From positions 7,730 to 71,729 of the forward strand of contig JANXCA010000001.1 in assembly GCA_025060535.1 (NCBI GenBank): DNA of 64,000 nucleotides, read 5' to 3'. Below the pieces are notes generated by a model. That model was not told where the DNA came from. It saw only the letters and a list, made by a program, of their open reading frames with translations, and made no database searches. Source of the stretch: Endomicrobiia bacterium (GTDB lineage: Bacteria; Elusimicrobiota; Endomicrobiia; DTEH01). The position numbers were made by a program, and so were the translations under genes. Positions 28,026 to 58,850 of this stretch are shown one piece after another. Position 1 is the first letter of the stretch. Each line of letters begins with the position of its first letter.

Positions 28026-28445
28026 TTATGTTTTTAGAGATTTTATCAATTTTACTATACCATCAATTATAGCTTCTGGCTTGGGAGGACAACCAGGTAC
28101 ATACGCAGAAACAGGAACAATTTTATCAACATCACAAGGACTATTAAAAGAATCCTTAAAAACTCCCCTTCCACAAGCACAAGTACCAATTGCTACTACA
28201 AAACATGGTTTAGGAGCTTGTTCATATAAATATTTCAATTTTGTATAATTTTTATAATTAGGCACACCTGTCACCAACAAAACATCTGCGTGTCTAATGG
28301 AACCTACTAGTTGAATACCAAATCTTTCTAAGTCATATCTTGGAGTCAAAGCATCTAAAATTTCAATATCACAGTTATTACATGGAGAAAGAGGTAAATG
28401 AAAAACCCACAATGATTTTAATAAAGATTTTTTTATTAATCCCAT
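28026..28445 (-). CDS. [NiFe] hydrogenase small subunit, NuoB/MbhJ-like
   Basis: Cys ligands SPCNNCDIE, GTCACGRG, PGCPPKPE. Confidence 0.85.
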   Translation of the reverse strand: MGLIKKSLLKSLWVFHLPLSPCNNCDIEILDALTPRYDLERFGIQLVGSIRHADVLLVTGVPNYKNYTKLKYLYEQAPKPCFVVAIGTCACGRGVFKDSFNSPCDVDKIVPVSAYVPGCPPKPEAIIDGIVKLIKSLKT

Positions 28446-28452
28446 ATTTATT

Positions 28453-30684: not shown

Positions 30685-30694
30685 TTTTAAAAAA

Positions 30695-31732
30695 TTAAAC
30701 CAAAACTTCTTCTCCTTTTGCTAAAACTAAACTTCTTATAACTTTTCTCATATCTATTTTCCCTGGACAAACTTCTATACATCTACCACAACCACTACAG
30801 GCATACATATTAAAATTTTCATATCTATATACAAACTTACATTGATATCTGTTTCTAAAACGTTGATATTTATATTTTCTAGGATTTGCTCCACCCGCAA
30901 CTCTGGAATATCCAGTAAAATGGCACACATCCCATACTTTATCTCTGTGTTGATCTTTATAATCCTTTGAAGCTTCCCTAATTAAAAAGCAATAACAACT
31001 TGGACATATAAAATTACAACCTCCACATTGAACACATTTTTCTGATTCTTTTTCCCAAATGCTTTCTAATTCATATGTATTTTTTAATGTAAGATAATGC
31101 TTATTTTTTTTATCTTCTTTGATATATTCTTTATTAAACTCATATATTTTCCTTTCAGAAACTACCCTTACACTATTTCTTTTTAAATAATCATTTTTTG
31201 TTGGTTCTTCAAACTCATTAAAATTTTCTTTTAAAAATTCCTCACCCTTTTGAGTAAATGCCTCCAAAATCAAATTATTTTCATCTACAAAAGAAATATT
31301 TAAGTCACTTCCGTCCCCTTTTTCTACATAAGGTCTACCACCAACTATACTACAAAAACAAGACAACTGAGGATTTATACAATCAGAAGATATAATTAAA
31401 GTATTTTCTTTATAAATTTTATATTTCTCATCTACATATTCTTCTCCTATAAATATATTGTCTAAAATTCTTATTGCTTTGAGGTCACAAAATTTTACAT
31501 CTAACAATAAAATCTTTTCGACAGAAGTAAAACTGGTTAGTATGTCTTTTACTTTAAAGAAAAATAATTTAGGAGGGTGTATACAACGAATGTTTAATAA
31601 TGCTAAATTTTGTATTTCTTGTGGATTAATTATTTTTTTATAGATTTGATCAAAATTATGATATATTATAATAAAATTATTCAAATTTTTAAAAACCGAT
31701 AAAAGATCGGAATAATTTATTATTTTCTCCAT
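30695..31732 (-). CDS. AsrA / sulfhydrogenase beta (HydB)-like iron-sulfur protein; first gene of the hydrogenase operon
   Basis: 345 aa; CVQCGGCNFICPSCYC and CSGCGRCIEVCP motifs. Confidence 0.7.
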   Translation of the reverse strand: MEKIINYSDLLSVFKNLNNFIIIYHNFDQIYKKIINPQEIQNLALLNIRCIHPPKLFFFKVKDILTSFTSVEKILLLDVKFCDLKAIRILDNIFIGEEYVDEKYKIYKENTLIISSDCINPQLSCFCSIVGGRPYVEKGDGSDLNISFVDENNLILEAFTQKGEEFLKENFNEFEEPTKNDYLKRNSVRVVSERKIYEFNKEYIKEDKKNKHYLTLKNTYELESIWEKESEKCVQCGGCNFICPSCYCFLIREASKDYKDQHRDKVWDVCHFTGYSRVAGGANPRKYKYQRFRNRYQCKFVYRYENFNMYACSGCGRCIEVCPGKIDMRKVIRSLVLAKGEEVLV

Positions 31733-31741
31733 AATACTTAT

Positions 31742-31759
31742 TTGTGAAATTTTTCACAA
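31742..31759. promoter_or_regulatory. Putative Rex operator TTGTGAA-ATTT-TTCACAA, 10 nt upstream of the operon ATG and abutting a TATAAT -10 (31760-31765, minus strand)
   Basis: Perfect 7-4-7 inverted repeat read directly. Matches published Rex consensus TTGTGAAnnnnTTCACAA. It also contains a CRP-like TGTGA-N6-TCACA core. Confidence 0.6.
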
Positions 31760-31806
31760 ATTATAAAATTTTTAAAAAGATATATAATACAAAATATCTT
31801 GTCAAG
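31760..31806 (-). promoter_or_regulatory. Putative sigma70-type promoter of the hydrogenase operon (-10 TATAAT at 31765-31760; TTGACA at 31805-31800)
   Basis: Hexamers read on minus strand. TTGACA/TATAAT spacing is 34 nt, so either an alternative -35 or a second -10 (TATCTT region) is used. Ambiguous. Confidence 0.35.
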
Positions 31807-31808
31807 CA

Positions 31809-32234
31809 TTAATAAATCTTTTCCTCTTCAGTAAACTTTTGACATTTTATGCAGAGATCTGTCCAAGGTAATGTTTCTAATCTCTTTTTAGGAATTTTTT
31901 CTCCACATTTACTACAAATACCATATTCTTTTTTTTCTATTTTTTCTAATGCTGCGTTTATTAAATTTAAAAGATTTATTTGTGTATCAGAGAGTTCACG
32001 GCGAAGTTCCCTATCTAAATTATGTTCTGCCATATCTATCTCATCACCTATGTCTGTGGGAAGCTCTATATTATTAGTTTTGTGAAGTTTCATTAATTCA
32101 TTATATTTTTCTATTAACTTTTTTTTATAGTACTCCAATTCTTTTTCTGAGATTTCTGCTTTTTTACAAACTTTTTGTTTAACTTTATATTTTTTTTTAT
32201 TAAGATTTTTATTAAGACTTTTCTTTTTTTTCAT
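31809..32234 (-). CDS. DksA/TraR-family C4 zinc-finger protein with Lys-rich N-terminus
   Basis: C-terminal CSKCGEKIP...CIKCQ four-Cys finger and preceding coiled-coil; 141 aa. Confidence 0.6.
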   Translation of the reverse strand: MKKKKSLNKNLNKKKYKVKQKVCKKAEISEKELEYYKKKLIEKYNELMKLHKTNNIELPTDIGDEIDMAEHNLDRELRRELSDTQINLLNLINAALEKIEKKEYGICSKCGEKIPKKRLETLPWTDLCIKCQKFTEEEKIY

Positions 32235-32240
32235 AAAGGT

Positions 32241-33734
32241 TCACCTTATGACTTTAATGGTTTTTAAATTTTCACTTTCTTGTCCACTTATTCTTACTGC
32301 GTAGGAAGAAATTTCTTGAAGATAATCAACTGTGTCCTTAGTTATTCTTTCTCCTGGAGTTAAAATAGGTAATCCAGGAGGATAAGGTGTTAAAGTCTGT
32401 GCTGAAATGTATCCCACAGATTTTTTTAAAGAAACTCTCTTTGTATTAGTAGAAAAAAATGCATCTCGAGGAAGCATTACAACTTCAGTAGAAAGTGGAG
32501 GAATTTGAAGTTTCTGAATCTCATAATCTCCAGAGTATTTTTTGGAAATATCTGTTATAGCATACACCAACTTCTCTACATCCTCTTTTGATGTACCAAA
32601 TCCACTTATCGCTACTAAATTAAACATATCAGCACAGTCAACTTGGATTTTATATTCCTTAGCAAGGATTTCTTCTATTTTATACCCTGTAAGACCTGTC
32701 TTTGTAACATTTATTGTAAGTTTTGTAAGATCTAAATCATAATATTCTGATTTGATTTCTTTTCTTGTCAAAGCAAATATATTAGGAAGTTTGTTAATTT
32801 CTTCTCTTGCCTTTTCACAATAAGAAATAATTTTACTAAAAACTTTAGTTCCATTTTTTACTACTTGCATTCTCGCTGCATCAATAGATGCTAAAATAAA
32901 ATAATTTGGACTTGTGGTTTGAAGCATGGATACAACTCTTTTTACTCTGTTTATATCAATCTTTGAAGAATTAAAATGTAATACTGATGCTTGACTTAAT
33001 GCTGAAAGTACTTTATGAACTGAATGCACACACATATCAGCTCCCACCTCCACAGCTGAAACAGGTAAGTCAGGATGGAACTTCAAATGCGGACCATGTG
33101 CTTCGTCTACTAATAAAATTTTGTTATGTTTTTTACAAACTTCTTGTATTTTTATAAGATCAGGACATATACCATTGTAGTTAGGAGAGGTTATAAATAC
33201 TGCTTTTGCTTCTGGATAGTTATTAATATATTCTTCTACTTCTTTAGAAGAAATTTCATATATTATGTCCCTTTGTTGATCCACTACAGGTTTAGCCCAT
33301 ATGGGCCATACACCTGCAAGAATTATACCTGCTAAAACTGACTTATGACATGTTCTTGAAAGTATTACAGAATCTCCAGGATCACAAGCAGACAACAACA
33401 TAGCGATATTACCTACAGTGGAACCATTTACTAAGAAAAATGAATTTTTTACATTGTAAGCTTTAGCCATAAGCTCTTGAGCAAGTTTTATACAGCTTAC
33501 AGGATCATGTAAAGAATCTACTTCAGGAAAAACAGTTACATCTAAGTAATATACATTACGTTTTGTAAAATCCCTTAATTTAGGCAAGATACTAGCACCA
33601 TTTTTATGTCCCGGAGTATGAAAAGATGTTACTTTGTTCTTTGCATGATTAAGTAAAACATCCAAAAGTGGTGTTGAATTTTGTGTAATTTTCATTTTTT
33701 GTTTTAGTTTATATTTTTTTCTTTTTTTTGTCAA
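32241..33734 (-). CDS. Orn/Lys/Arg decarboxylase family 1 (PLP-dependent; SpeA-type arginine decarboxylase candidate)
   Basis: SFHTPGHKNG N-terminal motif of the OKR_DC_1 major domain; 497 aa. Confidence 0.75.
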   Translation of the reverse strand: MTKKRKKYKLKQKMKITQNSTPLLDVLLNHAKNKVTSFHTPGHKNGASILPKLRDFTKRNVYYLDVTVFPEVDSLHDPVSCIKLAQELMAKAYNVKNSFFLVNGSTVGNIAMLLSACDPGDSVILSRTCHKSVLAGIILAGVWPIWAKPVVDQQRDIIYEISSKEVEEYINNYPEAKAVFITSPNYNGICPDLIKIQEVCKKHNKILLVDEAHGPHLKFHPDLPVSAVEVGADMCVHSVHKVLSALSQASVLHFNSSKIDINRVKRVVSMLQTTSPNYFILASIDAARMQVVKNGTKVFSKIISYCEKAREEINKLPNIFALTRKEIKSEYYDLDLTKLTINVTKTGLTGYKIEEILAKEYKIQVDCADMFNLVAISGFGTSKEDVEKLVYAITDISKKYSGDYEIQKLQIPPLSTEVVMLPRDAFFSTNTKRVSLKKSVGYISAQTLTPYPPGLPILTPGERITKDTVDYLQEISSYAVRISGQESENLKTIKVIR

Positions 33735-33809
33735 TATTTAAAATAAAATTTTTAAATGATAATTGAATTTTATTTCATTATTTTATAATTAAAAAATTCA
33801 CAAAAACCT

Positions 33810-34925
33810 ATGAAACCAAACATAAATATAGAAACTCCTTATTATTTTATCGACGAAAAAAAGATATTTAAAAATTTAAAAAAAATATCCTGGCTTAAAG
33901 AAAAAACCGGTGTAAAGGTAGTGCTTGCTTTAAAATGTTTTTCAACATGGAGCGTCTTTGGTTTACTTCGTGAATATCTTGATGGTACTACAAGCAGCTC
34001 ATTATACGAAACACGCCTAGGATATGAAAAATTCGGTAAAGAAACTCATGCATATTGCGTTGGATACACATTAGAAGATATAAAAGAAATTAAAAAATAT
34101 TCTAACATAATTATATTTAACTCTATAAGTCAACTAAAAAGATTTTACAAAGAAGTAAAAGGATTAAGCATAGGAATAAGGATTAATCCTAAAGTAAGTT
34201 ATTCACAATATGATTTAGCTGATCCTGCAAGAAAATTTTCAAGGTTGGGTGTAATTGATAAAAATGAGATCAAAAAAATAATAAATCTTATTGATGGTGT
34301 CATGTTTCATTTTAATTGTGAAAACGACAATTTTGAAAATTTTTCTAATAACTTGGATTATATTTCAAAAGAATTTGAAGATATTTTACATAAAATGAAA
34401 TGGGTTAGTCTAGGAGGTGGTATTTATTTTACAAAAAAGGGCTATCCTCTAAATGAGTTCGCAAAGAAACTAAAATCTTTTATAAAGAAGTTCAAACTTC
34501 AAGTATATTTAGAACCAGGAGAATCTGTAGTTACAGAAGCTGCTGAGTTAGTAACAAAAGTAGTAGATATAGTACATAATGAAATTGATATTGCTATAGT
34601 AGATGCTTCTACAGAACCTCATATGTTAGATTTACTTATTTATGGTACTCCTGCAAAAATTAAATCATATCCTGACGGGAAATATAGATATATGATAGCT
34701 GGGAGATCATGTTTAGCTGGAGACATATTTGGTGTTTATAATTTTAGAAAAAAATTAAAAGTTGGAGATATAATAAGAATACAAGATGCTGCGGGATATA
34801 CAATGGTAAAGAAAAATTGGTTTAATGGTTTACAAATGCCTTCTATTGTAGTAAAAAGACTAAATGGTAATATAGAAGTAGTCAGAAAATTCACATATGA
34901 GGATTATTTATATAGTTTATCATAA
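33810..34925 (+). CDS. nspC: Carboxynorspermidine/carboxyspermidine decarboxylase
   Basis: 371 aa alanine-racemase-fold decarboxylase; adjacent to CASDH gene. Confidence 0.8.
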   Translation: MKPNINIETPYYFIDEKKIFKNLKKISWLKEKTGVKVVLALKCFSTWSVFGLLREYLDGTTSSSLYETRLGYEKFGKETHAYCVGYTLEDIKEIKKYSNIIIFNSISQLKRFYKEVKGLSIGIRINPKVSYSQYDLADPARKFSRLGVIDKNEIKKIINLIDGVMFHFNCENDNFENFSNNLDYISKEFEDILHKMKWVSLGGGIYFTKKGYPLNEFAKKLKSFIKKFKLQVYLEPGESVVTEAAELVTKVVDIVHNEIDIAIVDASTEPHMLDLLIYGTPAKIKSYPDGKYRYMIAGRSCLAGDIFGVYNFRKKLKVGDIIRIQDAAGYTMVKKNWFNGLQMPSIVVKRLNGNIEVVRKFTYEDYLYSLS

Positions 34926-34970
34926 AAGTTCATTAAAAAATCTAAAATTTAAAGCAGGAGGTTAAAAACT

Positions 34971-36212
34971 ATGGCAAGAAAAAATGTTTTACTTATAGGT
35001 GCAGGAGGTGTAGCACATGTAGCTGCACATAAAATAGCAATGAATAATGACATATTAGGTGATCTATGTATAGCTTCTAGAACACAAAGTAAATGTGACA
35101 AAATTATAGAAAGTATTAAAAGAAAAGGAAATATAAAAGATACCTCAAAGAAAATATATTCAAGACAAGTAAATGCATTGGATGTCAAGGCTGTAGTAGA
35201 ATTAATAAAAGAAACAAAATCAGAAATGGTAATAAATTTAGGACAATCCTATGTTAATATGTCAGTACTTGAAGCTTGTATAGAAACAGGAGCAGCATAT
35301 TTTGATACAGCAATACATGAAGAACCCGATAAAGTTTGTGAAAATCCTCCATGGTATGCAAACTATGAATGGAAAAGAAAAGAAATATGTGAAAAAAAAG
35401 GTATTACTGCGATTTTATCTGTTGGTGCAGATCCAGGTATTGTGAATGCATATACTGCATATGCAAAAAAACATTATTTTGATGAAATAACCACTGTAGA
35501 TATAGTAGATGTAAATGCAGGAAATCATGGAAAATTTTTCGCTACTAATTTTGACCCTGAAATAAACTTTAGAGAATTTGTAAAAGCATGGGTGTGGATT
35601 GATAAAAAATGGGTAGCTGAACCAGTACATACAATAAAAAGAGAATTTGATCTTCCTGGATTAGGAAGATATACTGTGTATTTAAACGGACATGATGAAA
35701 TACATTCTTTATCTCAAAATATGGATATAAATACAATAAGGTTCTGGATGTATTTTTCTGATCATTATCTTAATGTATTTAACACATTAAAAAACATAGG
35801 ATTAACTTCTCACCTCCCCATAAAAACACATGATGGAAAAGAAGTAATTCCCTTAAGAGTTTTAAAAGCTCTTCTTCCTGATCCCGCTTCGTTAGCTGGT
35901 CCTAACTATACTGGTGTAGAATGGATAGGTAATTTTATAGAAGGAAAAAAGAATAATAAGGAAAGAAAAATGGTAATATATCTAATATGCGATCATCAAG
36001 AAGTATGGAAAGAGGTTGAATCACACGCAATTTGTTATACAGCAGGTGTTCCCCCAGTAGTCGCAGCAATACTTGTAGCAAAAGGAATTTGGGATGTTAA
36101 AAAAATGGTGAATGTAGAAGAATTAGATCCTGATCCATTCCTTGAAATTCTTTCAAAAAATGGACTAAAGACACATATAATAGTAGAAGAAATTGAAAGG
36201 AAAGAGATTTAA
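34971..36212 (+). CDS. Carboxynorspermidine/carboxyspermidine dehydrogenase (saccharopine dehydrogenase-like)
   Basis: VLLIGAGGVAHVAAHKIA Rossmann N-terminus; 413 aa. Confidence 0.8.
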   Translation: MARKNVLLIGAGGVAHVAAHKIAMNNDILGDLCIASRTQSKCDKIIESIKRKGNIKDTSKKIYSRQVNALDVKAVVELIKETKSEMVINLGQSYVNMSVLEACIETGAAYFDTAIHEEPDKVCENPPWYANYEWKRKEICEKKGITAILSVGADPGIVNAYTAYAKKHYFDEITTVDIVDVNAGNHGKFFATNFDPEINFREFVKAWVWIDKKWVAEPVHTIKREFDLPGLGRYTVYLNGHDEIHSLSQNMDINTIRFWMYFSDHYLNVFNTLKNIGLTSHLPIKTHDGKEVIPLRVLKALLPDPASLAGPNYTGVEWIGNFIEGKKNNKERKMVIYLICDHQEVWKEVESHAICYTAGVPPVVAAILVAKGIWDVKKMVNVEELDPDPFLEILSKNGLKTHIIVEEIERKEI

Positions 36213-36748
36213 TTTAGTTTAAGTTTTAATTTTTTAAAGTAATTCAAAATATTTTTTCTTGGAATTACAAGTTTAATATATTGAGAGATGTCTTTTCTCA
36301 ATTGAAGTCGTAAAGTAAAAACTTTTTTATGCAAGGTTGGATGAATAAAATTTTTAGCTATTTCTTCCATCGGATAAATTACAAATTTTCTATTTTGAAT
36401 TTTAGGATGAGGTATTTTTAAATTTTTAGTATTGATTATTTTTCTTCCATAGAAAAGAATATCTATATCAATAATTCGTGGTTGATATCTTTCTTTTTCA
36501 TAAGTTCTACCCATAAGTTTTTCAATATCTTTAGCTAATTTAAGTAAACTAAATGGTGTCAAATTAGTATCAATTTTTACCACACAATTATAAAAATAGG
36601 GTTGTTTAGTATTTTCTAAAGGAGAAGTAAGATATATAGAAGAAATATCTAAAATTTTACAACTTTTTGCAATATAAGCAATTGCATTTTTTATATTTTC
36701 ATATTTTTTGTATAAATTTGTACCTAAAGAAATATAAGCTATAACCAT
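36209..36748 (-). CDS. folK: 2-amino-4-hydroxy-6-hydroxymethyldihydropteridine pyrophosphokinase
   Basis: 179 aa HPPK fold (MVIAYISLGTNL..). Confidence 0.8.
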   Translation of the reverse strand: MVIAYISLGTNLYKKYENIKNAIAYIAKSCKILDISSIYLTSPLENTKQPYFYNCVVKIDTNLTPFSLLKLAKDIEKLMGRTYEKERYQPRIIDIDILFYGRKIINTKNLKIPHPKIQNRKFVIYPMEEIAKNFIHPTLHKKVFTLRLQLRKDISQYIKLVIPRKNILNYFKKLKLKLN

Positions 36749-36761
36749 ATATTACAAATTT

Positions 36762-37940
36762 TCACAAAACTTTTTTTATTCTCTCTAAAGCCTCTTGAAT
36801 TCTTTCCTTCGGTACTGTCAAGGCAAATCTTACATATCCCTCTCCACTTTTGCCCATACCTACTCCTGGAGTAACTACAACTCCCACATTTAAAAGTTTC
36901 TCAGCAAAAGATAATGAAGTCTCTTTCTTAGGAACTTTACACCATAAATAAAATGTCGCTTTTGGCAAAAACACATCTAAACCTAATTTTCTTAAACCAT
37001 TAAACAAAATATCTCTTCTTTCTTTATATATTTGTCTTACATTTTCTATACAATCTTGTGGTCCTTCTAAAGCAGCTATTGCAGCATATTGTATTGCACT
37101 AAAAACTCCAGAGTCATAGTTATCTTTTACTTTCGATAAACCAAAAATTATATCTTTATTACCACAAACAAAACCTACTCTCCAACCAGTCATATTATAT
37201 GTCTTAGAAAGAGAATGAAACTCTATACCTACATCTTTTGCACCTTTTATTGAAAGAAAACTTATAGGAGGGATTGAGTCGTCTAATTTATCATCTTTAA
37301 AATATATCTCAGAGTAGGCACAATCATGAGCAACAATTATGTTATACTCTTTTGCAAACTCAACTACTCTTTCAAAAAATTTCTTTGTAGCAACTTGTGT
37401 TGTCGGATTGTTGGGATAATTTAAAAACATTAATTTTGTTCTTTTAAGGATATCTTTAGGTATATCTTCTAATATTGGTAAAAAATTGTTATCTTCTTTT
37501 AAAGACATATAATACACTTTACCACCAGCAAGAATAACAGAAGAAGAATACACAGGGTAGCCAGGTTCAGGGACTAATACATAGTCATCTTTATCTACAA
37601 ATGCCAATGGTAAATGAGCTATACCTTCTTTTGAACCTATTAAAGAGTGAACTTCATTATTAGGATCAAGTTCTACATTAAATCTTTTTTTGTACCAATT
37701 AGCCACAGCAACACAAAACTCTTCCAATCCCTTTCCAAAAGGATATTGATGAGTTTTAGGATTATCTATTGCTTTTTTCATAGCCTCTATAATATGAGAA
37801 TGAGTAGGTAAATCTGGATCACCCACACCTAAAGAAATTATATCTACTCCTTTCTGTTGAAGTTCTTTTTTCTTTCTATCAAGTTCAATAAACAAATAAG
37901 GAGGTAGACTCATTAATTTATCACTATATTTTATTTCCAT
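36762..37940 (-). CDS. dapL: LL-diaminopimelate aminotransferase (DapL-type) / class I aminotransferase
   Basis: LPPYLFIELDRKK, LGVGDPDLPT and SLSKTYNMTGWRVG PLP-Lys region match DapL pattern. Confidence 0.7.
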   Translation of the reverse strand: MEIKYSDKLMSLPPYLFIELDRKKKELQQKGVDIISLGVGDPDLPTHSHIIEAMKKAIDNPKTHQYPFGKGLEEFCVAVANWYKKRFNVELDPNNEVHSLIGSKEGIAHLPLAFVDKDDYVLVPEPGYPVYSSSVILAGGKVYYMSLKEDNNFLPILEDIPKDILKRTKLMFLNYPNNPTTQVATKKFFERVVEFAKEYNIIVAHDCAYSEIYFKDDKLDDSIPPISFLSIKGAKDVGIEFHSLSKTYNMTGWRVGFVCGNKDIIFGLSKVKDNYDSGVFSAIQYAAIAALEGPQDCIENVRQIYKERRDILFNGLRKLGLDVFLPKATFYLWCKVPKKETSLSFAEKLLNVGVVVTPGVGMGKSGEGYVRFALTVPKERIQEALERIKKVL

Positions 37941-38216
37941 ATTTTAAAAGCCTCCCTCTTTTATGAAATTATGATAGTTTTTAAATAATAAAAATTACAA
38001 ACTTTTTAAAAAATAAAATCAAAAACGTGTTTTTTATCATAAACATTACATCATCCATTTTTTTAAAAAAAATACACATTTTTACTTTCATCTGAATTAT
38101 TAAAAATTAAAAAATCATAAAAACTTATATCTCATATTATAAAAGTCTCTATGCTATAACTTTATAAAAAGAAAAAATTAAACGAACAATCTATTGTTTA
38201 ACTTAACGCAAAACTT

Positions 38217-38681
38217 TTATAGGTTTTTAATCATTAATAACGCATCTTCTCCATCAGGATAAAACTTTTTTTTAGTTTCTACTTCATTAAAACCAAATTT
38301 CTTATAAAAAGATATCGCTTTATAATTACTAACTCTAACTTCTAAAATCACAATTTTTATGTTAAGAGGAATTAATTCATTAAATAAGTATAAAAGAAGT
38401 CTGCTTCCTATACCTTTATTTTGATATTCTTTCTTAACGGAAATATTAAGAATATGAGCTGTATCATTTGATAACCAACATACAACATAACCTATTACAT
38501 TATTATAAATTTTGCATACATAAAATTTTTTTATTTTATCTGAAAGTCTAATATTAAATAAAATAAAATCTCTACTCCAATGAAATTTAAAATTTTCTTT
38601 TTCTATTAAATATATCTGTAATACATCTTCATCTTTAGCCTCTTTAATTACTACATTATCTAAAGTTGAAGTTAACTCCAT
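38217..38681 (-). CDS. rimI: GNAT N-acetyltransferase (RimI-like)
   Basis: 154 aa GNAT fold with Q/R-x-x-G-x-G/A (YQNKGIGSRLL). Confidence 0.6.
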   Translation of the reverse strand: MELTSTLDNVVIKEAKDEDVLQIYLIEKENFKFHWSRDFILFNIRLSDKIKKFYVCKIYNNVIGYVVCWLSNDTAHILNISVKKEYQNKGIGSRLLLYLFNELIPLNIKIVILEVRVSNYKAISFYKKFGFNEVETKKKFYPDGEDALLMIKNL

Positions 38682-38684
38682 AAT

Positions 38685-39728
38685 TTATAGTTTTTTACTG
38701 AATTCAAAAAGAGTTTCTAAACACAAAATAACTCCAGAAACATCTACCTTATTTTTTAAAGCAACATCAGACGCAGTCCCATGACCAGGTGAAACTCTTA
38801 TAAACGGTAACCCAACAGTTATATTCACTATATTATAACCACATAATAATTTTAGTGGCACCATTGCTTGATCATGATATGTAGCAACTATAAGAGAGTT
38901 CGTATTTCTTTTAGCATAATTAAATGCATCTGAAGCCTGCAGAGGAAAGATAATTTCTATACTTAAATGCTTTTTTAATAATCTAATCCCATCTAGAATA
39001 ATTGTTTTTTCTTCTTTCCCTATTTTTCCTTCTTCTCCTGAATGAGGATTTAAATTACAGAAAAAAATTTTTTTTACTTTTTTCTCTTCATATTTATTAA
39101 TAAAATTAACAACATTATTAACTTGAAAAAATATATCTTTGCTATTTAAGTTTTTTGAAACATCTACCAAAGGTACATGTCTTGTTAATAACAATACTCT
39201 ATATATATTACCTTCTTTATCTTTCCCTTTCATCAACATACTTATTTTATTTTTGCTTATATTAAACTTATCCGCAAAATATTCTGTATGACCTTTAAAA
39301 TTCTTATAAAATTTACAAATTTTACTTTTTGAAATAGGCATTGTAAGAACAAAAAACTCTAAATTATTTCTCAAAAAAAAATTAACTACTTCACACATTT
39401 TTTCTAAAGAAAAAAATGAAATTTTCCCTATAAATTTTTTAACTTCTGAATTTTTAATTTCGGGTAATATATCTATTACCAAACAATGATTTTTAGAGAG
39501 ATCTAAAAGTTGAAAAGATTGTAGAATCTCTGTGTTAACTTTAAAAGGAAAAAAAGTTAGATTATATTTATAAGCTATGTATTTTAACCAATTAAAATTA
39601 CCTATAATTATAGGATTAAAATAGCCTATGAAAGGATTATGCGAAGAAGACAAAATTTTTAACACCAACTCATAACCAACTCCATCTGCATCTCCACAAC
39701 TTATAATAAGCCATTTTTTTTGAAGCAT
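38685..39728 (-). CDS. pdxA: 4-hydroxythreonine-4-phosphate dehydrogenase
   Basis: ATYHDQAMVPLKL and PFIRVSPGHGTASDVA motifs; surA-pdxA synteny as in E. coli. Confidence 0.8.
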   Translation of the reverse strand: MLQKKWLIISCGDADGVGYELVLKILSSSHNPFIGYFNPIIIGNFNWLKYIAYKYNLTFFPFKVNTEILQSFQLLDLSKNHCLVIDILPEIKNSEVKKFIGKISFFSLEKMCEVVNFFLRNNLEFFVLTMPISKSKICKFYKNFKGHTEYFADKFNISKNKISMLMKGKDKEGNIYRVLLLTRHVPLVDVSKNLNSKDIFFQVNNVVNFINKYEEKKVKKIFFCNLNPHSGEEGKIGKEEKTIILDGIRLLKKHLSIEIIFPLQASDAFNYAKRNTNSLIVATYHDQAMVPLKLLCGYNIVNITVGLPFIRVSPGHGTASDVALKNKVDVSGVILCLETLFEFSKKL

Positions 39729-39731
39729 ATC

Positions 39732-40775
39732 TCATTTTATTATTTCAAAATATTGGATTTTGGCTTTACTTTTAAGTTGTTCTACAAACTGTTCATAATA
39801 CTTCTCAGCGTTTCTTCTTGCAACATACTGAAGTAAATCTTCTTTTATTTGTTCAAAATCTGGCTTTCTTTTTGCTCTGTATTCTATAACTTTCGCTATA
39901 TGATAACCAAATTTCGTCTCAAATACATCACTAACCTGACCTTCTTTCAAAGAAAAAACAACCTTTTCAAATTCTGCAACAGTATCTCCCCTTGCAATAA
40001 AACCTAAATCGCCACCTCTATCTTTACTCCCAGGATCTTCAGAGTATTTCTGCGCTAAAGTTGCAAAATCCTCTCCCTTATCTATTTTGGACTTTATTTC
40101 TCTTGCTCGTTTTAAAGCTTCCTCTTTTTTTTCTTTAGAAAAATCCGGTTCGACTCTTATTAATATATGTCTTACTCTTACCTGTTCACTAAAATATCTT
40201 TCTACTAACTGAGCCAAAAGTTTTAATTCATTTTTTTCTTCTTCTGGTAATTTAACATCTTCTTTTTTTTCTATTATTTTTATAACCTTATTAAAAATCT
40301 CTTTTGCTTCTGCTTCTGTTGGTTCTTTTAAATTTTTCTTAATCTCTTCATCAATTAATTTCAACACCATTATTTGTTCTTCTATTTTCTTTTCAAATTG
40401 TTTTTCTGTCAAGTTCTCTTTTTTTAACTCTTGATAAAACATTAAATCAGAAGGAAATCTTGACTTAACAGTCTTTATACCTTCTTCAATCTCTCTTTTG
40501 GTAACCTTAATGTTTCTTTTTTTAGCCTCTTGAAGTAATAATTTATCAGCTATCAGCTGATCTAACACCTTTTGTTTTATTTCTTTTATTTCTTTTTCAG
40601 ATAACTCTTTTGCTGAAAGTTGTTTTAGCTGTTCTAATGTAACATTAAGGAGTTTCTCATACTCTGACTTCATTATATTTTCATTATTTACTTTAACTAT
40701 CACTTTCTCAACTACAGAAGTATTAATTTTAGTTATTATTACCAAGAAAAAAAATATAAAGAGAAATTTTTTCAT
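39732..40775 (-). CDS. surA: SurA-like periplasmic chaperone / peptidyl-prolyl isomerase (signal peptide + PpiC domain)
   Basis: N-terminal signal peptide; parvulin domain VRHILI...FGYHI; position upstream of pdxA. Confidence 0.6.
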   Translation of the reverse strand: MKKFLFIFFFLVIITKINTSVVEKVIVKVNNENIMKSEYEKLLNVTLEQLKQLSAKELSEKEIKEIKQKVLDQLIADKLLLQEAKKRNIKVTKREIEEGIKTVKSRFPSDLMFYQELKKENLTEKQFEKKIEEQIMVLKLIDEEIKKNLKEPTEAEAKEIFNKVIKIIEKKEDVKLPEEEKNELKLLAQLVERYFSEQVRVRHILIRVEPDFSKEKKEEALKRAREIKSKIDKGEDFATLAQKYSEDPGSKDRGGDLGFIARGDTVAEFEKVVFSLKEGQVSDVFETKFGYHIAKVIEYRAKRKPDFEQIKEDLLQYVARRNAEKYYEQFVEQLKSKAKIQYFEIIK

Positions 40776-40858
40776 TTATTTTCTCCTTTACTATTATTTT
40801 AGATTTAATGGTTATTTATACAAAATTATATTATGATTGTAAATGGAAAGGAAAAAAA

Positions 40859-41599
40859 TTATTGTTTTTCTTTTGTAACTGTACTTATAAAAATTTCTTC
40901 TAAAGGTATCCTTTGCCATTCTTTATTTTCTACTATTTTTAAAATTTTACCCTTATGAATTATAGCTACACGATCACACACTTTTTCAAGCTCCGAGATA
41001 AGATGAGAAGAAAAAAATATTGTTTTGCCTTGTGACTTAAGTTGAAGTATAAAATCTCTTATCTCTTTTATGCCTAATGGATCAAGACCACTTGTGGGTT
41101 CATCAAATACTAATATAGCTGGATTGTGAATTATTGCTTGTGCTAATCCTAATCTTTGAATCATACCTTTTGAATATTCTGATATTTTTCTATCAATACT
41201 GTCAGAAAGTTTAACAAAATCAATTACTTCTTTAATTCTTTTATTATCTATAAAACCTAATGAAAGACTTGCATATAATTTGAGTAATTCTAAACCTGTA
41301 AAATTTTTATTGAAACTTACTAATTCTGGTAAATAACCAATGTGTTTATTTATCCTCCAATCCGGGATTTTGTTACCAAACACATATATCTCACCAAAAT
41401 CAGGAAACAAAAGCCCCAAAATTAACTTTATTGTAGTCGTTTTACCAGAACCATTAAGACCTAATAAACCAAAAATTTCATTTTTATAAACTTCAAAACT
41501 AACCTCTTCTATACCTATAACATACTTTGTTTTTAAAAATTTATGCTTTTTATATATCTTTTTGAGTCGTTTTACTTCTATTATTTTCTCGCTATTCAT
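40859..41599 (-). CDS. ABC transporter ATP-binding protein (ABC-2 type), orphan (no adjacent permease)
   Basis: Walker A GLNGSGKTT, signature YSKGMIQRLGLA, Walker B ILVFDEPTSGLD. Confidence 0.8.
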   Translation of the reverse strand: MNSEKIIEVKRLKKIYKKHKFLKTKYVIGIEEVSFEVYKNEIFGLLGLNGSGKTTTIKLILGLLFPDFGEIYVFGNKIPDWRINKHIGYLPELVSFNKNFTGLELLKLYASLSLGFIDNKRIKEVIDFVKLSDSIDRKISEYSKGMIQRLGLAQAIIHNPAILVFDEPTSGLDPLGIKEIRDFILQLKSQGKTIFFSSHLISELEKVCDRVAIIHKGKILKIVENKEWQRIPLEEIFISTVTKEKQ

Positions 41600-43188
41600 A
41601 ATTTTATAAACTTTACCATATTAATACCGGAAACTTGTTCAAGAGAAGAAATTAATTGCGAAGTAATTTCACTATCTACATTAATAAAAGTTAGTGCCTC
41701 ACCACCTGGTATTTTTCTTGCCACAAACATCTTTGCAATATTTATGTTATTGTCTCCCAAAATTGTGCCTATCTTTCCAATTATACCTGGCTTGTCTATA
41801 TTAGAAACTACAATAATATTTCCTTCAGGTTCTAAATCTGCATCCATACCATTGATTTCTATTATTCTACAATTATTATCTGAGATCAAAGTACCAGAAA
41901 TAGTATAAGTGCTTTTAGAAGTTTCAACTTTGGCAGTTATATATTCTTTATACTCTTTACCTTCTCTAAGTTTGGTTTCTTTAATAGATATTCCTCTTTC
42001 TTTAGCAATTATTTGAGAATTTATAAAATTAAGTTGGATATCTACAAATCTTGAAAGAAAGCTTTTAACATATGCTGAAGTTAAGATATATGTATTTATA
42101 TTATTAAAAATTTCTCCTACATACTGAATTTCTATTTGTTTTACAGCTTCAAGAGTAAGATGGCTTTGTAGTAAACCAATTTTCTCAACTAATTTAATAT
42201 AAGGTTTTAGTTTCTCATACATCTGAAAATCAATTGAAGGAATATTTACTGCATTTTTTATAACCCCTTTTGTAAAAAAATCAACTATCATTAAAGAAAC
42301 CTCTTGTGCAATCTTTACCTGTGCTTCTTCAGTAGAAGCTCCTAAATGTGGAGTAAACACAACGTTTTCCATTTTAAATAAAGATGAAGAAAAATCTGGA
42401 GGTTCTTTTTCAAATACATCTAAAGCAGCTGAGGATACTTTACCAGATTTTAATGCTTCATATAAATCATTTTCATTTATAATTCCTCCACGAGCACAAT
42501 TTACAATTTTTACTCCATCTTTCATTTTTGAAATTGTTTCTTTATTGATTAAATTTTTTGTAGAATCTGTTTTAGGAATATGTAGACTAATAATATCAGA
42601 TTCTTTTAACAAATCTTCAAAAGATTTAAGTTCTACTCCTAACTGATTAGCATATTCTTCAGAAACATATGGATCATAAGCTATAATCCGCATATCAAAT
42701 GCTTTCATCCTTTTAGCTACTTCAGAACCAATTCTACCTAACCCTATAAGTCCTAATGTTTTTCCTTGAAGTTCATTACCTACAAATTTTTCTCTTTCCC
42801 ATCTACCGGATTTTAAAGAGTTATGTGCTTGAGGTATATTTCTTACCATAGCCAGTATAAGACCAATTGTATGTTCACAAGCAGAAATAGTATTCCCTCC
42901 AGGAACATTCATCACTATAATTCCTTTTTTATTTGCAGCATTAATATCTACATTATCTACTCCAGTACCTGCTCTAACTATTAACTTTAACTTATCAGCA
43001 GATTCTATTATTTCCTTTGTAACTTTTACTTCAGAACGAATCAAAAGTCCTTCATAATCTCTTATTAAATTTTGAAGTTCTTCTTGAGTAGGTTTAGGTT
43101 TTATATCTACCTGAATTTCTGGGTGATTTAGTAGTAGTTCTAATCCCTCGGTATTTTTATATGTCATTAAAATTTTATATTTTTTCAT
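41596..43188 (-). CDS. serA: D-3-phosphoglycerate dehydrogenase (with ASB and ACT domains)
   Basis: 530 aa; NAD-binding GLIGLGRIGSEVA, 2-hydroxyacid dehydrogenase catalytic region, C-terminal ACT. Confidence 0.85.
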   Translation of the reverse strand: MKKYKILMTYKNTEGLELLLNHPEIQVDIKPKPTQEELQNLIRDYEGLLIRSEVKVTKEIIESADKLKLIVRAGTGVDNVDINAANKKGIIVMNVPGGNTISACEHTIGLILAMVRNIPQAHNSLKSGRWEREKFVGNELQGKTLGLIGLGRIGSEVAKRMKAFDMRIIAYDPYVSEEYANQLGVELKSFEDLLKESDIISLHIPKTDSTKNLINKETISKMKDGVKIVNCARGGIINENDLYEALKSGKVSSAALDVFEKEPPDFSSSLFKMENVVFTPHLGASTEEAQVKIAQEVSLMIVDFFTKGVIKNAVNIPSIDFQMYEKLKPYIKLVEKIGLLQSHLTLEAVKQIEIQYVGEIFNNINTYILTSAYVKSFLSRFVDIQLNFINSQIIAKERGISIKETKLREGKEYKEYITAKVETSKSTYTISGTLISDNNCRIIEINGMDADLEPEGNIIVVSNIDKPGIIGKIGTILGDNNINIAKMFVARKIPGGEALTFINVDSEITSQLISSLEQVSGINMVKFIKL

Positions 43189-43205
43189 CTATTTAAACTC
43201 CTTTT

Positions 43206-44348
43206 TTATAAATTATTTATTTTTTCTTCAAATGCTTTTACTCCACTACCTAATGGTATCTTTATTCCCAATTTATTTAAAACAACTTCTAAACCATAAA
43301 TTCCAACCACTAAATCAAATCTATCAATATAACCCATATGAGCAATTCTTACAATTTTACCTTTTAGTTTATCTTGTCCACCAGCAATTGAAATTCCAAA
43401 CTCTTCTCGCATTATTTTAACAACTTTCTGACCATCAACTCCTTCAGGCATCTCAATCGGGGTAACTATATTACTTATATGATTTTCATCACAAAAGATC
43501 TTTAAACCCATTGATTTTATAGCATATCTTGTAGCAATTGCTAGTTTTTCTGTATCTTCCCAAATTTTTTGCAATGTCTTTTCTTTTATCATTTCTATTG
43601 CTTTATGAATAGCCACAACTAAACTAACAGCAGGAGTAAAAGGAGTTTCTTTGTTCTCAATTGATTTTCTCATTCTTTTAAAATCAAAATAAAACTTTGG
43701 TAAGTTAGAATTCTCCACTAACTGCCAAGCTTTAGTACTCACACTAACAAAAGATAATCCGGGAGGACACATTAATCCCTTCTGTGAACCAGTTACTGCT
43801 ACATCTACATTCCATTCATCATTCAAAAATTTTTGGTTTACTAAGCCACTTATTGTATCTACTACTAACACTGCTTGTGTATCCTTAACAATTTTGCCTA
43901 TCTCTTCAATATTATTTACAACACCTGTTGAAGTTTCTGTGTGTGTTGTAAAAACAGCTTTTATATTTTTATTTTGTTGCAGAATTTTTTCTATATCTTT
44001 TGGATTTATAGCTTTACCCCACTCCACAGCTACTTTATGAACTTTTACTCCATACGCTTGACAAATTTTCTCCCATCTATCTCCAAAATTACCACATGAA
44101 GCTACTATAACTTCATCATCTTTTGATAACAAATTTACAACAGATGCTTCCATAGCAGCAGTACCTGAACCTGTTACCATCAAAACATCTCCCTTAGTCT
44201 GAAAAATATATTTCATGCCCTCTATTACTTCCACAAAAATTTTACCAAATTCAGAAGTTCTATGATGTAGGATAGGACGTGCTTCTGCCTGTGCTACCTC
44301 ATGGGGAACAGGTGTTGGTCCCGGTGTTAATAGAAAATATTTTTTCAT
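43206..44348 (-). CDS. Class V aminotransferase (AGXT/archaeal-type phosphoserine aminotransferase-like)
   Basis: LLTPGPTPVP N-terminus, PLP-fold; adjacent to serA; SD AGGAGG upstream. Confidence 0.75.
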   Translation of the reverse strand: MKKYFLLTPGPTPVPHEVAQAEARPILHHRTSEFGKIFVEVIEGMKYIFQTKGDVLMVTGSGTAAMEASVVNLLSKDDEVIVASCGNFGDRWEKICQAYGVKVHKVAVEWGKAINPKDIEKILQQNKNIKAVFTTHTETSTGVVNNIEEIGKIVKDTQAVLVVDTISGLVNQKFLNDEWNVDVAVTGSQKGLMCPPGLSFVSVSTKAWQLVENSNLPKFYFDFKRMRKSIENKETPFTPAVSLVVAIHKAIEMIKEKTLQKIWEDTEKLAIATRYAIKSMGLKIFCDENHISNIVTPIEMPEGVDGQKVVKIMREEFGISIAGGQDKLKGKIVRIAHMGYIDRFDLVVGIYGLEVVLNKLGIKIPLGSGVKAFEEKINNL

Positions 44349-44373
44349 TTTTTCCTCCTTTTAAATAAAAATA

Positions 44374-44391
44374 TTGTGAAATTTTTCACAA
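44374..44391. promoter_or_regulatory. Second putative Rex operator, identical 18-mer TTGTGAA-ATTT-TTCACAA, 25 nt upstream of the aminotransferase ATG
   Basis: Read directly. Same 18-mer as 31742-31759 and the same promoter architecture: minus strand TTGACT at 44419-44414, AT-rich -10 abutting the box, then AAGGAGG SD. Confidence 0.6.
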
Positions 44392-44432
44392 TATATAAAA
44401 TATTATTTAAAAAAGTCAATAGTTTTAAAAAA

Positions 44433-44972
44433 TTATTTTATTTTTATAATTTCAGGCGAAATAAAGAAATTATTACCTCCTATGTGATGGATGGTTTTCG
44501 CTTTATGAGAAATTAAATATTTATCATATACATTTTCATCTACTGCACAATATACCACTTCTCCTACGTATAACTTCACACCACTATACTCTTTCACATC
44601 AAAAAGCTTTGCTTCTATAAACCCGACACAATTTTTAAGATGAACTGTATTAACTTTGTAACCATCTTCATATAATATATTAAATTTTTTAAATTTGTCT
44701 TCTTCTTTACCAGATGTCTTCCCAGTCATAATTACTACATTTAATAAACTATAAGAGGGAACATTAATTACAAACTCTCCGTATTTTTCTATAAGTTCTG
44801 AAGTATAATGAGTTGAAGCTACACACACCACTACTAAAGGAGGATCATCATTTAAAGGAGTAATCCATGCAATTGGTGCAATATTTTTTATATTTTTATT
44901 TCCTGAAGTAATCAAACAACAAGGACCATGATTGATTAAATGATAGAATTTATGTATATCTAATTTTTTCAT
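44433..44972 (-). CDS. Flavin reductase-like (FMN-binding split-barrel) protein
   Basis: 179 aa, flavin_reduct domain pattern (INHGPCCLITSG...APIAW). Confidence 0.65.
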   Translation of the reverse strand: MKKLDIHKFYHLINHGPCCLITSGNKNIKNIAPIAWITPLNDDPPLVVVCVASTHYTSELIEKYGEFVINVPSYSLLNVVIMTGKTSGKEEDKFKKFNILYEDGYKVNTVHLKNCVGFIEAKLFDVKEYSGVKLYVGEVVYCAVDENVYDKYLISHKAKTIHHIGGNNFFISPEIIKIK

Positions 44973-44999
44973 AAAACTACCTTCTTTATATTACAAGGA

Positions 45000-46883
45000 T
45001 TATATTAAAGGATTATGTTGAATATACAATAAATTTCCTTTTTTATTATATTCGTTTATCTCAGACATTACTTTTTCAATTATTTTCTCATTTGGTTTTA
45101 ATAACTTTAAGATAAAAGTAATACTATATCCTTTATAATTTTTTTCTACTTCTCTTTCAATAAAAACTTCTATATTTTTATTTATATTTTTATTTCTTAA
45201 AATTTTATCTTTAAAATCTAAAATCGATTTCTCATCTTTACTTAAAACCTGAATTCTTACTAAATGAACAAAAGGTGGATACTTTAATTCTTCTCTAATT
45301 TTCAATTCGTTATTATAAAAATTTTCATAACCATTAAATAAATAAACAGCATCTTCTTTAGAAATATTTTCAATATAAAATTCTATCTGTCTATCCTGGG
45401 GCAAAGATGAAGCAAAAGTTTTTATTATTCTATAAAAATTTTCATAGTTCAGATAATTAGGCTTCTGCAAAAATTCAGATATTGAAAGAAAATACAAACT
45501 ACCTATATTTGAAAAATCAATTTTATAGATATAATTCAAAATCTCCAAATTCGAAAGTAACACATCAATACTTCTTCTGTTGAATTCTTCTATCTTTTGT
45601 AATTTTTTAATATTATTCATCTCGGAAGTTATCTCTTCTATAATAGCTCCTTTTATTTTACTTCTTAAAAAATCTATAATCTTTTTATCTTTAAATATAA
45701 TTTCTCTATAATAAGGACTACCACATTCTGAACATATAAAAACTTTCTTAGATTTAGTAAGTACTTTAAAATTTTTTTTAGAATAAAATTTCTTACAAAC
45801 TAAACAAACATAAAATCCTCTAGAACCTCTATAAGGGAAAATTACTAATGTTTGTTTAAATTTATATATATCTTTAGAAATAACTTCAGTTAAAGTTTTG
45901 TTTGCTGTAATTATTTTAACATTGTTACCTATTTCTAAACATTTTTTATTAGAAACTAAAGGATAGCTATAAATATATGACACCGAATGAAAAAAACTAC
46001 TGTATACTAACCTACAAGAATAATTTTTTATCCTTTTTTCTAAAATAAACAAACTATTATACATGGGCACCTCTGGATTTCTATATCCTAATGAATCACA
46101 CTCATCTACTACTATATAAGAAATATTTTCAAAAGGCAAAAATACCCCAATTTTTGTAGCAAAAACTACATTTATAAGCTTATTTCTTATAAGATACCAA
46201 ATTTTATATCTTTCTTCTAAAGAAACTTCACCAGTATAAAATGCAAAATTTTTGTTTAATTTCATATCTATGTTAGTCTTTTTATAAAAAAATTCATAAA
46301 AGTCATTTATGTAATTTGTATTAGGAAAAATAATTAATAATTGTAAATCTTTTTCAATAGAATAAAAAATTAATTCTTTATAAAATTCAAATTTTTCTTG
46401 TATGCTGGATGGTACAAATAAACTTATCTTTTTTAAGTTTATTTTTTCTAATGTTTTTAAATATTTATATTCTATTAAAAATTTAAATTTATTATTTTCT
46501 TCGTTTTTTAAAATAACAGCATCTTTTATCACAAATTTGTGTGATATTGGAAAAAACTGATTCAAGAAAAGTCCAAAAGAAATCAAATAAATCCTAGAAA
46601 ACCATTCTGCTGTCATAAGTTGTTCTTTATCAAAAAAGGGAAAAGGATCTATAACAGACTTTATAGGTTTTATAAAAGTCAACTCTTTTTTATCAAATCT
46701 TAAATCATCGTATACATCAACAATAACTCCTATCTTTCCAACCTCTCTTCCAAAATCTACTTCTACTCTGCTTCCTATTAGATTAAAAGAAGTATTTCTG
46801 TTTGATAAAAAATAAGTATATCTTTGATTTAAAGGTATAGGGAATATAACATCACAAAAGATTTTATCCATATTCTTATTCAT
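45000..46883 (-). CDS. priA: Primosomal protein N' (PriA) homolog with degenerate helicase motifs
   Basis: N-terminal 3' DNA-binding domain (VIFPIPLNQRYTYF...VEVDFGREVGKIGVIV). Cys-rich zinc-binding region (CLVCKK...CSECGS). C-terminal YPPF. Walker A position reads LFVPSSIQEKFEFY and the motif VI GRAGR is absent. Confidence 0.65.
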   Translation of the reverse strand: MNKNMDKIFCDVIFPIPLNQRYTYFLSNRNTSFNLIGSRVEVDFGREVGKIGVIVDVYDDLRFDKKELTFIKPIKSVIDPFPFFDKEQLMTAEWFSRIYLISFGLFLNQFFPISHKFVIKDAVILKNEENNKFKFLIEYKYLKTLEKINLKKISLFVPSSIQEKFEFYKELIFYSIEKDLQLLIIFPNTNYINDFYEFFYKKTNIDMKLNKNFAFYTGEVSLEERYKIWYLIRNKLINVVFATKIGVFLPFENISYIVVDECDSLGYRNPEVPMYNSLFILEKRIKNYSCRLVYSSFFHSVSYIYSYPLVSNKKCLEIGNNVKIITANKTLTEVISKDIYKFKQTLVIFPYRGSRGFYVCLVCKKFYSKKNFKVLTKSKKVFICSECGSPYYREIIFKDKKIIDFLRSKIKGAIIEEITSEMNNIKKLQKIEEFNRRSIDVLLSNLEILNYIYKIDFSNIGSLYFLSISEFLQKPNYLNYENFYRIIKTFASSLPQDRQIEFYIENISKEDAVYLFNGYENFYNNELKIREELKYPPFVHLVRIQVLSKDEKSILDFKDKILRNKNINKNIEVFIEREVEKNYKGYSITFILKLLKPNEKIIEKVMSEINEYNKKGNLLYIQHNPLI

Positions 46884-58249: not shown

Positions 58250-58258
58250 AGCAACCTC

Positions 58259-58846: not shown

Positions 58847-58850
58847 AAAT

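Follow-up and report, generated by a model that had tools for sequence, protein, structure and literature searches.

A putative Rex operator shared by a serine operon and a hydrogenase-like operon in an Endomicrobiia bacterium

Introduction

Which regulator would read one and the same 18-bp palindrome in front of a hydrogenase-like operon and a serine operon, and what could the control of these two operons have in common? The question is raised by a 64,000-nt (64-kb) stretch of contig JANXCA010000001.1 from an Endomicrobiia bacterium of the phylum Elusimicrobiota, referred to below as the window, which has a GC content of 28% and carries nearly all of its genes on the minus strand. An earlier note on this DNA had taken the palindrome for an operator of the redox repressor Rex and the two operons for a small redox regulon. 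Having compared the sites with those of relatives, of metagenome contigs and of published regulons, we consider it quite probable that a redox-sensing repressor of the Rex family uses the 18-mer as its operator and would keep the operon repressed at low NADH/NAD+. The reading of the two operons with their shared box as a small redox regulon holds up at the level of sequence.

Two identical palindromes in intergenic DNA

The palindrome, TTGTGAAATTTTTCACAA, is of the TTGTGAATTTTTTCACAA type and occurs in exactly two copies in the window, confirming the description of identical sites at two promoters about 12.6 kb apart (the separation is 12,632 nt).

44374-44391, no strand assigned: box 2, putative Rex operator of the aminotransferase-serA operon, an 18-bp inverted repeat TTGTGAA-ATTT-TTCACAA (exact match)
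31742-31759, no strand assigned: box 1, an 18-mer identical to box 2, lying 10 nt 5' of the ATG of the first hydrogenase-operon gene

Both boxes match the Rex operator consensus TTGTGAA-N4-TTCACAA, as quoted in PMC6391272 and PMC2883068, at 14/14 specified positions. Base composition alone predicts 0.0008 matches to this consensus per 64 kb, and none arose in order-2 Markov simulations (0/200). The looser pattern TGTGA-N6-TCACA, which is matched perfectly by the inner 16 bp of the 18-mer, appeared at a mean of 0.06 per simulation in the same set of 200 and is present in the window only as the two boxes. Both boxes are intergenic, in a window whose intergenic share is ~5.6%. The earlier judgement that an 18/18 identity was unlikely to arise by chance is borne out by these figures. 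AT-rich palindromes are common in DNA of 28% GC, and box 2 might on that account be a chance palindrome, or a duplicated one without function; the numbers just given, the placement of both copies in the small intergenic fraction and the retention of the box at the same promoter position where its flanks have diverged (see below) make this a negligible prospect.

When the window was scanned with a position weight matrix (PWM) built from all Endomicrobiia sites, both boxes scored 27.9 bits, the runner-up scored 13.0 bits and was coding, and the rest reached 7 bits or less; the matrix includes the two window boxes, so that their top rank is partly circular.

Promoters and genes of the two operons

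Box 2 is located within the 84-nt spacer between a flavin-reductase-like gene (44433-44972) and the aminotransferase gene, and ends 25 nt 5' of the ATG of the latter at 44348. The elements that had been placed around it, namely a TTGAC-type -35 at 44419-44414, an AT-rich -10 at the box and an AAGGAGG Shine-Dalgarno sequence, could all be located.

44414-44419, minus strand: predicted -35 hexamer TTGACT (consensus scan, 10/12 matches)
44390-44395, minus strand: predicted -10 hexamer TATATT, with a 2-nt overlap with box 2 (promoter scan)
44392-44397, minus strand: alternative -10 TATATA, abutting box 2 (sequence)
44354-44360, minus strand: Shine-Dalgarno sequence AAGGAGG, 5 nt ahead of the ATG (direct sequence reading)

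The predicted serine-operon promoter can be written as TTGACT-N18-TATATT, and a transcription start ~7 nt 3' of the predicted -10 would fall within the palindrome. A box that sits on or just after a predicted promoter occupies what we read as a repressor position.

The counterpart of this promoter, with box 1 between it and the start codon, belongs to a large operon of the 'Mbh-Mrp-oxidoreductase' hydrogenase type, which has been described for some Elusimicrobia (10.1101/765248). Its genes encode a sulfhydrogenase-beta-like Fer4_22 protein, an FAD/NAD subunit, NuoH/B/C/D-like subunits and Mrp antiporter subunits.

18435-31732, minus strand: group-4 'Mbh-Mrp-oxidoreductase' type NiFe hydrogenase-like operon (Pfam, NCBIfam)
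30695-31732, minus strand: sulfhydrogenase-beta-like Fer4_22 protein, first hydrogenase-operon gene (Pfam, NCBIfam)
29863-30684, minus strand: FAD/NAD-binding subunit, second hydrogenase-operon gene (Pfam, NCBIfam)

At both promoters ATTTTATA stands directly 5' of the box. This shared element is the part of a proposed 'paralogous promoter architecture' that survives closer comparison. The distance from the -35 to the box is 22 nt at the serine promoter (TTGACT) versus 40 nt at the hydrogenase promoter (TTGACA), and a Shine-Dalgarno sequence is found at one of the operons only.

The gene content of the serine operon is as the earlier note had claimed it, a string of serC-like, serA, ABC transporter, surA, pdxA and rimI genes (Pfam, TIGR01327).

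43206-44348, minus strand: class V (AGXT / serine-pyruvate family) aminotransferase (Pfam Aminotran_5)
41596-43188, minus strand: D-3-phosphoglycerate dehydrogenase SerA, type I, with intervening and ACT domains, 530 aa (Pfam, NCBIfam)
40859-41599, minus strand: ABC transporter ATPase, its start overlapping the serA stop by 4 nt (Pfam)
39732-40775, minus strand: SurA-like periplasmic chaperone / peptidyl-prolyl isomerase, with an 83-nt gap ahead of it (Pfam)
38685-39728, minus strand: PdxA, NAD-dependent 4-hydroxythreonine-4-phosphate dehydrogenase family (Pfam)
38217-38681, minus strand: GNAT acetyltransferase (RimI-like), final gene of the string (Pfam)

The genes are tightly spaced (in order 17 nt, a 4-nt overlap, 83 nt, 3 nt and 3 nt), and a 276-nt gap follows the last of them. 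The same GNAT-ending order is seen in six loci of relatives (L011, L014, L016, L018, L020 and L021). SerA was assigned with Pfam domains 2-Hacid_dh, 2-Hacid_dh_C, PGDH_inter and ACT and with a TIGR01327 score of 654 bits against a cut-off of 454. The aminotransferase is likely to be the phosphoserine aminotransferase of the operon; its NCBIfam matches are AGXT-like and under the equivalog cut-offs, placing it in the AGXT / serine-pyruvate branch and not with canonical SerC. The solved structures nearest to it are those of serine, serine-glyoxylate and serine-pyruvate aminotransferases. It is identical to a protein, encoded on a 94,003-bp contig of an Elusimicrobiota metagenome-assembled genome (MAG), that NCBI names alanine--glyoxylate aminotransferase family protein (P0121 in our set); among genome loci, the nearest belong to Endomicrobiia MAGs, with 80-85% amino-acid identity. 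Two of the predicted targets in this operon, SerA and PdxA, are NAD-dependent dehydrogenases and fit the type of target that Rex controls.

Conservation of the boxes among Endomicrobiia

Comparison with relatives gives what we regard as the strongest evidence in this analysis, and in it the box has the appearance of a phylogenetic footprint. Four other Endomicrobiia lineages (L003, L020, L021 and L057) have box 2, exact or with one mismatch, in the corresponding place of the promoter, and in all of them TTGAC or TTGAT is aligned with the -35 of the window; a fifth relative, L004, carries the box at a distance.

L003 (GCA_039630545.1), 82% amino-acid identity: box 2 identical; promoter not resolved
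L021 (GCA_017880035.1), 84% amino-acid identity: box 2 identical; a perfect TTGACA-17-TATAAT overlaps the box
L057 (JGI metagenome), ~66% amino-acid identity: box 2 identical; TTGACA-17-TATACT abuts the box
L020 (GCA_026416325.1): box 2 with one mismatch, overlapping or abutting the predicted -10
L004 (MAG contig CALJEJ010000057.1): one-mismatch box, displaced ~490 bp upstream by a repeat insertion

Box 1 is kept 9-17 nt 5' of the ATG in L010, L011/L012, L013, L018 and L019 (four other lineages), in which the identity of hydrogenase-operon proteins ranges from 97% down to 49% and, for L019, the upstream genes differ. It is cleanly missing at the hydrogenase operon in L014-L017. Taking the two operons together, both boxes are present in the window lineage, in L003/L011 and in L018/L020, and both are missing in the L007/L015-L017 lineage; such co-presence and co-absence is the pattern that a shared regulator would be expected to leave behind.

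Within the box, positions 3-7 (GTGAA) and 13-16 (TCAC) are invariant in 10/10 tabulated sites, and the L057 site is identical as well. Position 7 is A in 10/10 of these sites and position 12 is T in 9/10, variation being limited to the outer positions and the central tetrad, while the flanks around the sites have diverged to ~55% identity.

These comparisons also bear on whether the palindrome could act as RNA, as a hairpin in the 5' untranslated region that affects the stability or translation of the mRNA. The transcribed repeat would fold into 9-10 bp at -8 to -9 kcal/mol (z-scores -2.6 to -3.2 versus shuffles), and at the hydrogenase operon the box is probably 3' of the transcription start. 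At the serine operon, however, the predicted start is inside the box, so that the hairpin would not be transcribed whole. Moreover, there are no compensatory changes across the 10 tabulated sites: the core is invariant and the outer variation breaks pairs, and therefore sequence-specific recognition rather than structure appears to be what has been conserved. The region 30000-46000 gave no Rfam match. We regard a role at the RNA level as very improbable, and return to a DNA operator.

In L004 (positions 30-524), ~480 bp lie between the one-mismatch box and the aminotransferase gene and include two ~60-nt direct-repeat copies (GTTGATAGTCAATAGTYCACAGTCCACAGAAAATGTAGCGGCAAARCGT.AGCTTTGC). It looks as though a small repetitive element had inserted there and cut the operator off from its gene.

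Identity of the regulator

A scan of metagenome contigs for the exact 18-mer found it on at least 120 contigs, and the results in this paragraph hold for the matches listed. The box is intergenic in 89 contigs among them, and the Pfam families most common among 100 open reading frames (ORFs) flanking the intergenic 18-mer are multihaem cytochromes c (10), NuoB (5), NuoG-like (5), NuoD (4), NuoF (4), NuoA (3) and ATP synthase subunit a (3). Judged by these families, the flanking genes represent the respiratory and redox spectrum typical of Rex regulons and not a catabolite spectrum. A rex homologue is present on three of the contigs (L102, L108 and L121). The box is directly 5' of rex in L102 and L108; in L121 the gene that follows it is nuoA, and rex is 1.4 kb away. 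The L102 operon (541-3040) consists of TTGACA-17-TATCCT, the box, an ATG 2 nt later (rex start region 3020-3045), rex, a Fer4_22 protein and an FAD/NAD subunit; the Fer4_22 protein and the FAD/NAD subunit share 33% and 51% identity, respectively, with the products of genes one and two of the box-1 operon. The closest named homologues of the L102 Rex, among the best 120, are from Omnitrophota MAGs (66-81% identity). Omnitrophota are a sister phylum of Elusimicrobia, and an NAD(P)H-oxidoreductase module thus appears to travel with rex there. Within Elusimicrobia, rex genes next to hydrogenases have been described in lineage V (10.1101/765248).

Several observations weigh against Rex as the reader of the box. 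The most serious is the failure to find a rex gene for this lineage in the following searches, which is the main gap in the argument. With Thermus and Bacillus Rex as queries, tblastn found no rex in the 64 kb of the window or in loci L001-L021 of Endomicrobiia. Pfam scans, which covered window ORFs of 100 aa or more without overlap with any longer ORF, gave no rex (PF06971 with PF02629) either and, as the sole transcription factor, a DksA/TraR zinc-finger protein. A search for homologues of the Omnitrophota Rex returned no Endomicrobiia protein among the best 120, which included Omnitrophota and Methylomirabilales proteins. In L001, L002, L005 and L007 (Endomicrobiia/Elusimicrobia MAG contigs) the orthologous aminotransferase gene has no box in front of it, and the link between box and serine operon is therefore evolutionarily labile. 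Promoter-like sites in this AT-rich region are not enriched over shuffles (102 versus 100 expected); hexamer calls alone are therefore weightless, and the predicted -35 rests on its position and conservation. To derepress an NADH-producing enzyme at high NADH is, furthermore, counter-intuitive. Finally, the letters of the box also suit another family of regulators.

This family is CRP/FNR, a member of which, or some other winged-helix dimer that recognises TGTGA-N6-TCACA, could bind the box in response to a signal such as a cyclic nucleotide, CO, NO or oxygen. The perfect match to that pattern within the 18-mer is one reason to consider it and the failure to find rex in the searched loci of this lineage is another; in addition, the A/T at positions 7 and 12, by which the two consensus sequences are told apart, carry little information at 28% GC. 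Several CRP/FNR-family sites, for example HcpR-type sites in anaerobes, are nearly identical in look. The position of the box points the other way, since it overlaps or follows the predicted -10, as a repressor site would, and is not near -41 or -61 where class I/II activators bind (centred at -41.5/-61.5). Positions 7 and 12 extend the conserved half-sites to TTGTGAA, as in Rex sites, and it is redox enzymes that are targeted. A tblastn search of the window and of L001-L021 with E. coli CRP as query gave no CRP-like gene, although this query is insensitive to divergent members of the family. With the same query, equally insensitive to distant members, no CRP homologue was detected near the 18-mer among the metagenome loci listed (at least 120), whereas rex genes and respiratory operons adjoin the exact 18-mer there. 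The pair of target operons is, moreover, that of the experimentally defined Rex regulon of Caldicellulosiruptor bescii described below. On balance we think a CRP/FNR-type reader unlikely.

Of the Rex operator and redox regulon proposed for this DNA, what stands is the perfect consensus, the repressor position, the conservation at both operons and the adjacency to rex elsewhere; the identity of the regulator is one that we infer.

Relation to known Rex regulons

The earlier note had remarked that Rex control of an aminotransferase and phosphoglycerate dehydrogenase (PGDH) pair is not a textbook target. It is indeed absent from textbooks, but it has been published (PMC6391272, PMC8579813). In C. 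bescii, recombinant Rex binds in electrophoretic mobility shift assays to a site 88 bp upstream of Athe_2126. The operon there, with genes for a class V aminotransferase, a PGDH and a hypothetical protein, is expressed 0.57-0.63 log2 higher when rex is deleted (Sander et al. 2019, PMC6391272). An Ech/MBH NiFe hydrogenase operon is a listed member of the same regulon, and the authors call the Rex-serine link 'not well understood' (PMC6391272). SerC/SerA are among the most conserved predicted members of the Rex regulon across 14 Caldicellulosiruptor genomes (Rodionov et al. 2021, PMC8579813).

The likeness to C. bescii is close. Both organisms have an 18-20 bp palindrome of the TTGTGAA-N4-TTCACAA type 5' of a gene for an AGXT-type class V aminotransferase that is followed by serA, both have a Rex-type site at a membrane-bound NiFe hydrogenase operon, and the derepression in the C. 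bescii deletion strain agrees with the repressor position in the window. The differences are those of host, operon and site. C. bescii belongs to the Firmicutes, whereas the window is from Elusimicrobiota, class Endomicrobiia; the window operon is longer, adding the ABC ATPase, surA, pdxA and GNAT genes; the C. bescii site is 88 bp from the ATG, as opposed to 25 nt and an overlap with the predicted -10 in the window; and the Rex protein is known in C. bescii but was not found for the window lineage. The aminotransferases are likened by family, not by orthology. The window would thus hold the same pair of Rex target operons, serine and membrane NiFe hydrogenase, as C. bescii, now in a third phylum.

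A serine-pyruvate aminotransferase has been predicted in the Rex regulon of five Thermotogales, where the pair was read as a route of serine utilisation with an NADH-dependent step (Ravcheev et al. 2012, as cited in PMC6391272). As far as that citation goes, the consensus operator and the aminotransferase family are the same as in the window. The dehydrogenase of the window is a 530-aa PGDH with intervening and ACT domains that scores above the TIGR01327 cut-off, which argues for biosynthesis instead.

The classical Rex operators of Streptomyces coelicolor, Bacillus subtilis and Staphylococcus aureus (the last with the consensus TTGTGAA-W4-TTCACAA; PMC2883068) share with the boxes the 18-bp consensus, including a central tetrad of A/T only, and the combination of promoter-overlapping sites with NAD(H)-using targets. 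They differ in their Gram-positive hosts and in serving respiratory and fermentative targets (cydABCD, nuo, ldh, adhE, pfl) and not amino-acid biosynthesis. The Rex-type operator and the Rex-serine link of the window are accordingly of a known kind, in a phylum where they had not previously been described, and reveal no new kind of element or mechanism.

Possible function of the joint control

From what is established for Rex, a Rex dimer would sit on the box at low NADH/NAD+ and block RNA polymerase. At the serine operon the bound repressor would occlude the -10 and the transcription start, and at the hydrogenase operon it would block the early transcript region. A rise in NADH would take Rex off the DNA and derepress both operons together. 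Because they share one operator, the hydrogenase-like and serine/pyridoxal phosphate (PLP) operons are probably switched jointly by the NADH/NAD+ ratio.

Derepression of the hydrogenase complex would give the cell a way to dispose of reducing equivalents. In the case of the serine operon, compensation is the rationale that we find most likely. More enzyme at high NADH/NAD+ would offset the mass-action inhibition by NADH of PdxA and of the NAD+-dependent PGDH, whose equilibrium is unfavourable, and would keep the supply of serine going, along with that of PLP through SerC-type transamination and PdxA. SerA has the full regulatory architecture of a biosynthetic enzyme, and compensation is the reading that we favour.

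The earlier note had suggested that the enzymes might run in the NADH-consuming direction. This coincides with what was proposed for Thermotogales, but the full-length ACT-domain PGDH above its equivalog cut-off favours biosynthesis, so that a reverse role in the reduction of hydroxypyruvate or a 2-oxoacid, although possible, is the less likely one for such an enzyme. In a wider form of this idea, the aminotransferase-PGDH pair would serve redox balancing, as an NADH-consuming hydroxypyruvate/2-oxoacid reductase shunt or as a serine-based overflow at high NADH, or else the box would be read by a lineage-specific regulator other than Rex. Redox balancing is conceivable because coupling to Rex beside H2-evolving membrane complexes recurs in fermenters of the Firmicutes, Thermotogae and Elusimicrobiota; we nevertheless give this set of alternatives a low probability and prefer compensation under Rex.

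For the uncultured, free-living Endomicrobiia, the shared box would represent a first piece of transcriptional wiring, which places a hydrogenase-like complex and a serine/PLP string under one operator. The recurrence of the Rex-serine link in a third, distant phylum makes it more likely that the link is physiologically meaningful, and it deserves an enzymological explanation.

Other features of the window

The runner-up of the PWM scan, TAGTGAAAAACTTCACCA at 26669-26686, scores 13 bits and departs from the consensus at 2 positions. We considered it as a third box and rejected it, as it lies inside the gene for the NiFe large subunit. It encodes a conserved RGEVFHY motif and drifts synonymously in relatives, with no conservation at the DNA level, and appears to be a by-product of coding. 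We likewise set aside everything that scored 7 bits or less, the intergenic matches at 33786 and 36750 among them, since these are half-sites that do not rise above background.

The gap-pgk genes and nadC belong to gene classes that are under Rex in some other bacteria. In the window (3694-5961 and 10632-11498) they have no Rex-like site, and the best nearby PWM match, at 6.3 bits, is inside nadC. The end of the window (57422-64000) is taken up by genes for a 2-oxoacid:ferredoxin oxidoreductase (POR), comprising an ORF with a PFOR_II domain (probably a truncated alpha subunit, represented by its C-terminal part) and a subunit that binds thiamine pyrophosphate, followed by RnfCDGEAB genes. The promoter of this string lies past the end of the window. 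Since Rex controls POR and Rnf in other anaerobes, a third box may lie at the POR-Rnf string, just outside the window.

A polyamine-type cluster (32241-36212), syntenic in relatives, separates the two box operons. It encodes an Orn/Lys/Arg decarboxylase, a protein of the Orn/DAP/Arg-decarboxylase fold and a saccharopine-dehydrogenase-like protein (a carboxynorspermidine-synthase-like pair). Directly 5' of the hydrogenase operon is the DksA/TraR-type zinc-finger gene (31809-32234, 141 aa), which is kept in the syntenic Endomicrobiia L010-L018, not in L019. It is present with or without the box, and its product does not count among the classical DNA-binding factors.

In the hydrogenase operon, the first gene lacks a Shine-Dalgarno sequence in every lineage (the window, L011, L013 and L014-L019), in contrast to the strong AAGGAGG of the serine operon, and in the lineages that have no box its ATG follows ~20 nt after the -10. 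The mRNAs of this operon and of the rex operon of L102 probably have very short leaders or none. A terminator-like hairpin, CCGATCTTTTATCGG with a T-run and a 5-bp stem, is found at 31696-31710 on the minus strand, 22-36 nt inside this first gene. As terminator-like sites are not enriched in the scanned region (2 versus 4.5 expected from shuffles), it is probably due to chance.

In the box-less relative L014, a gene with a 23S_rRNA_IVP / bAvd domain (14377-14748) is inserted in the hydrogenase operon, between the genes for the 30-kDa and 49-kDa subunits. The domain is a four-helix bundle that is found with diversity-generating retroelements.

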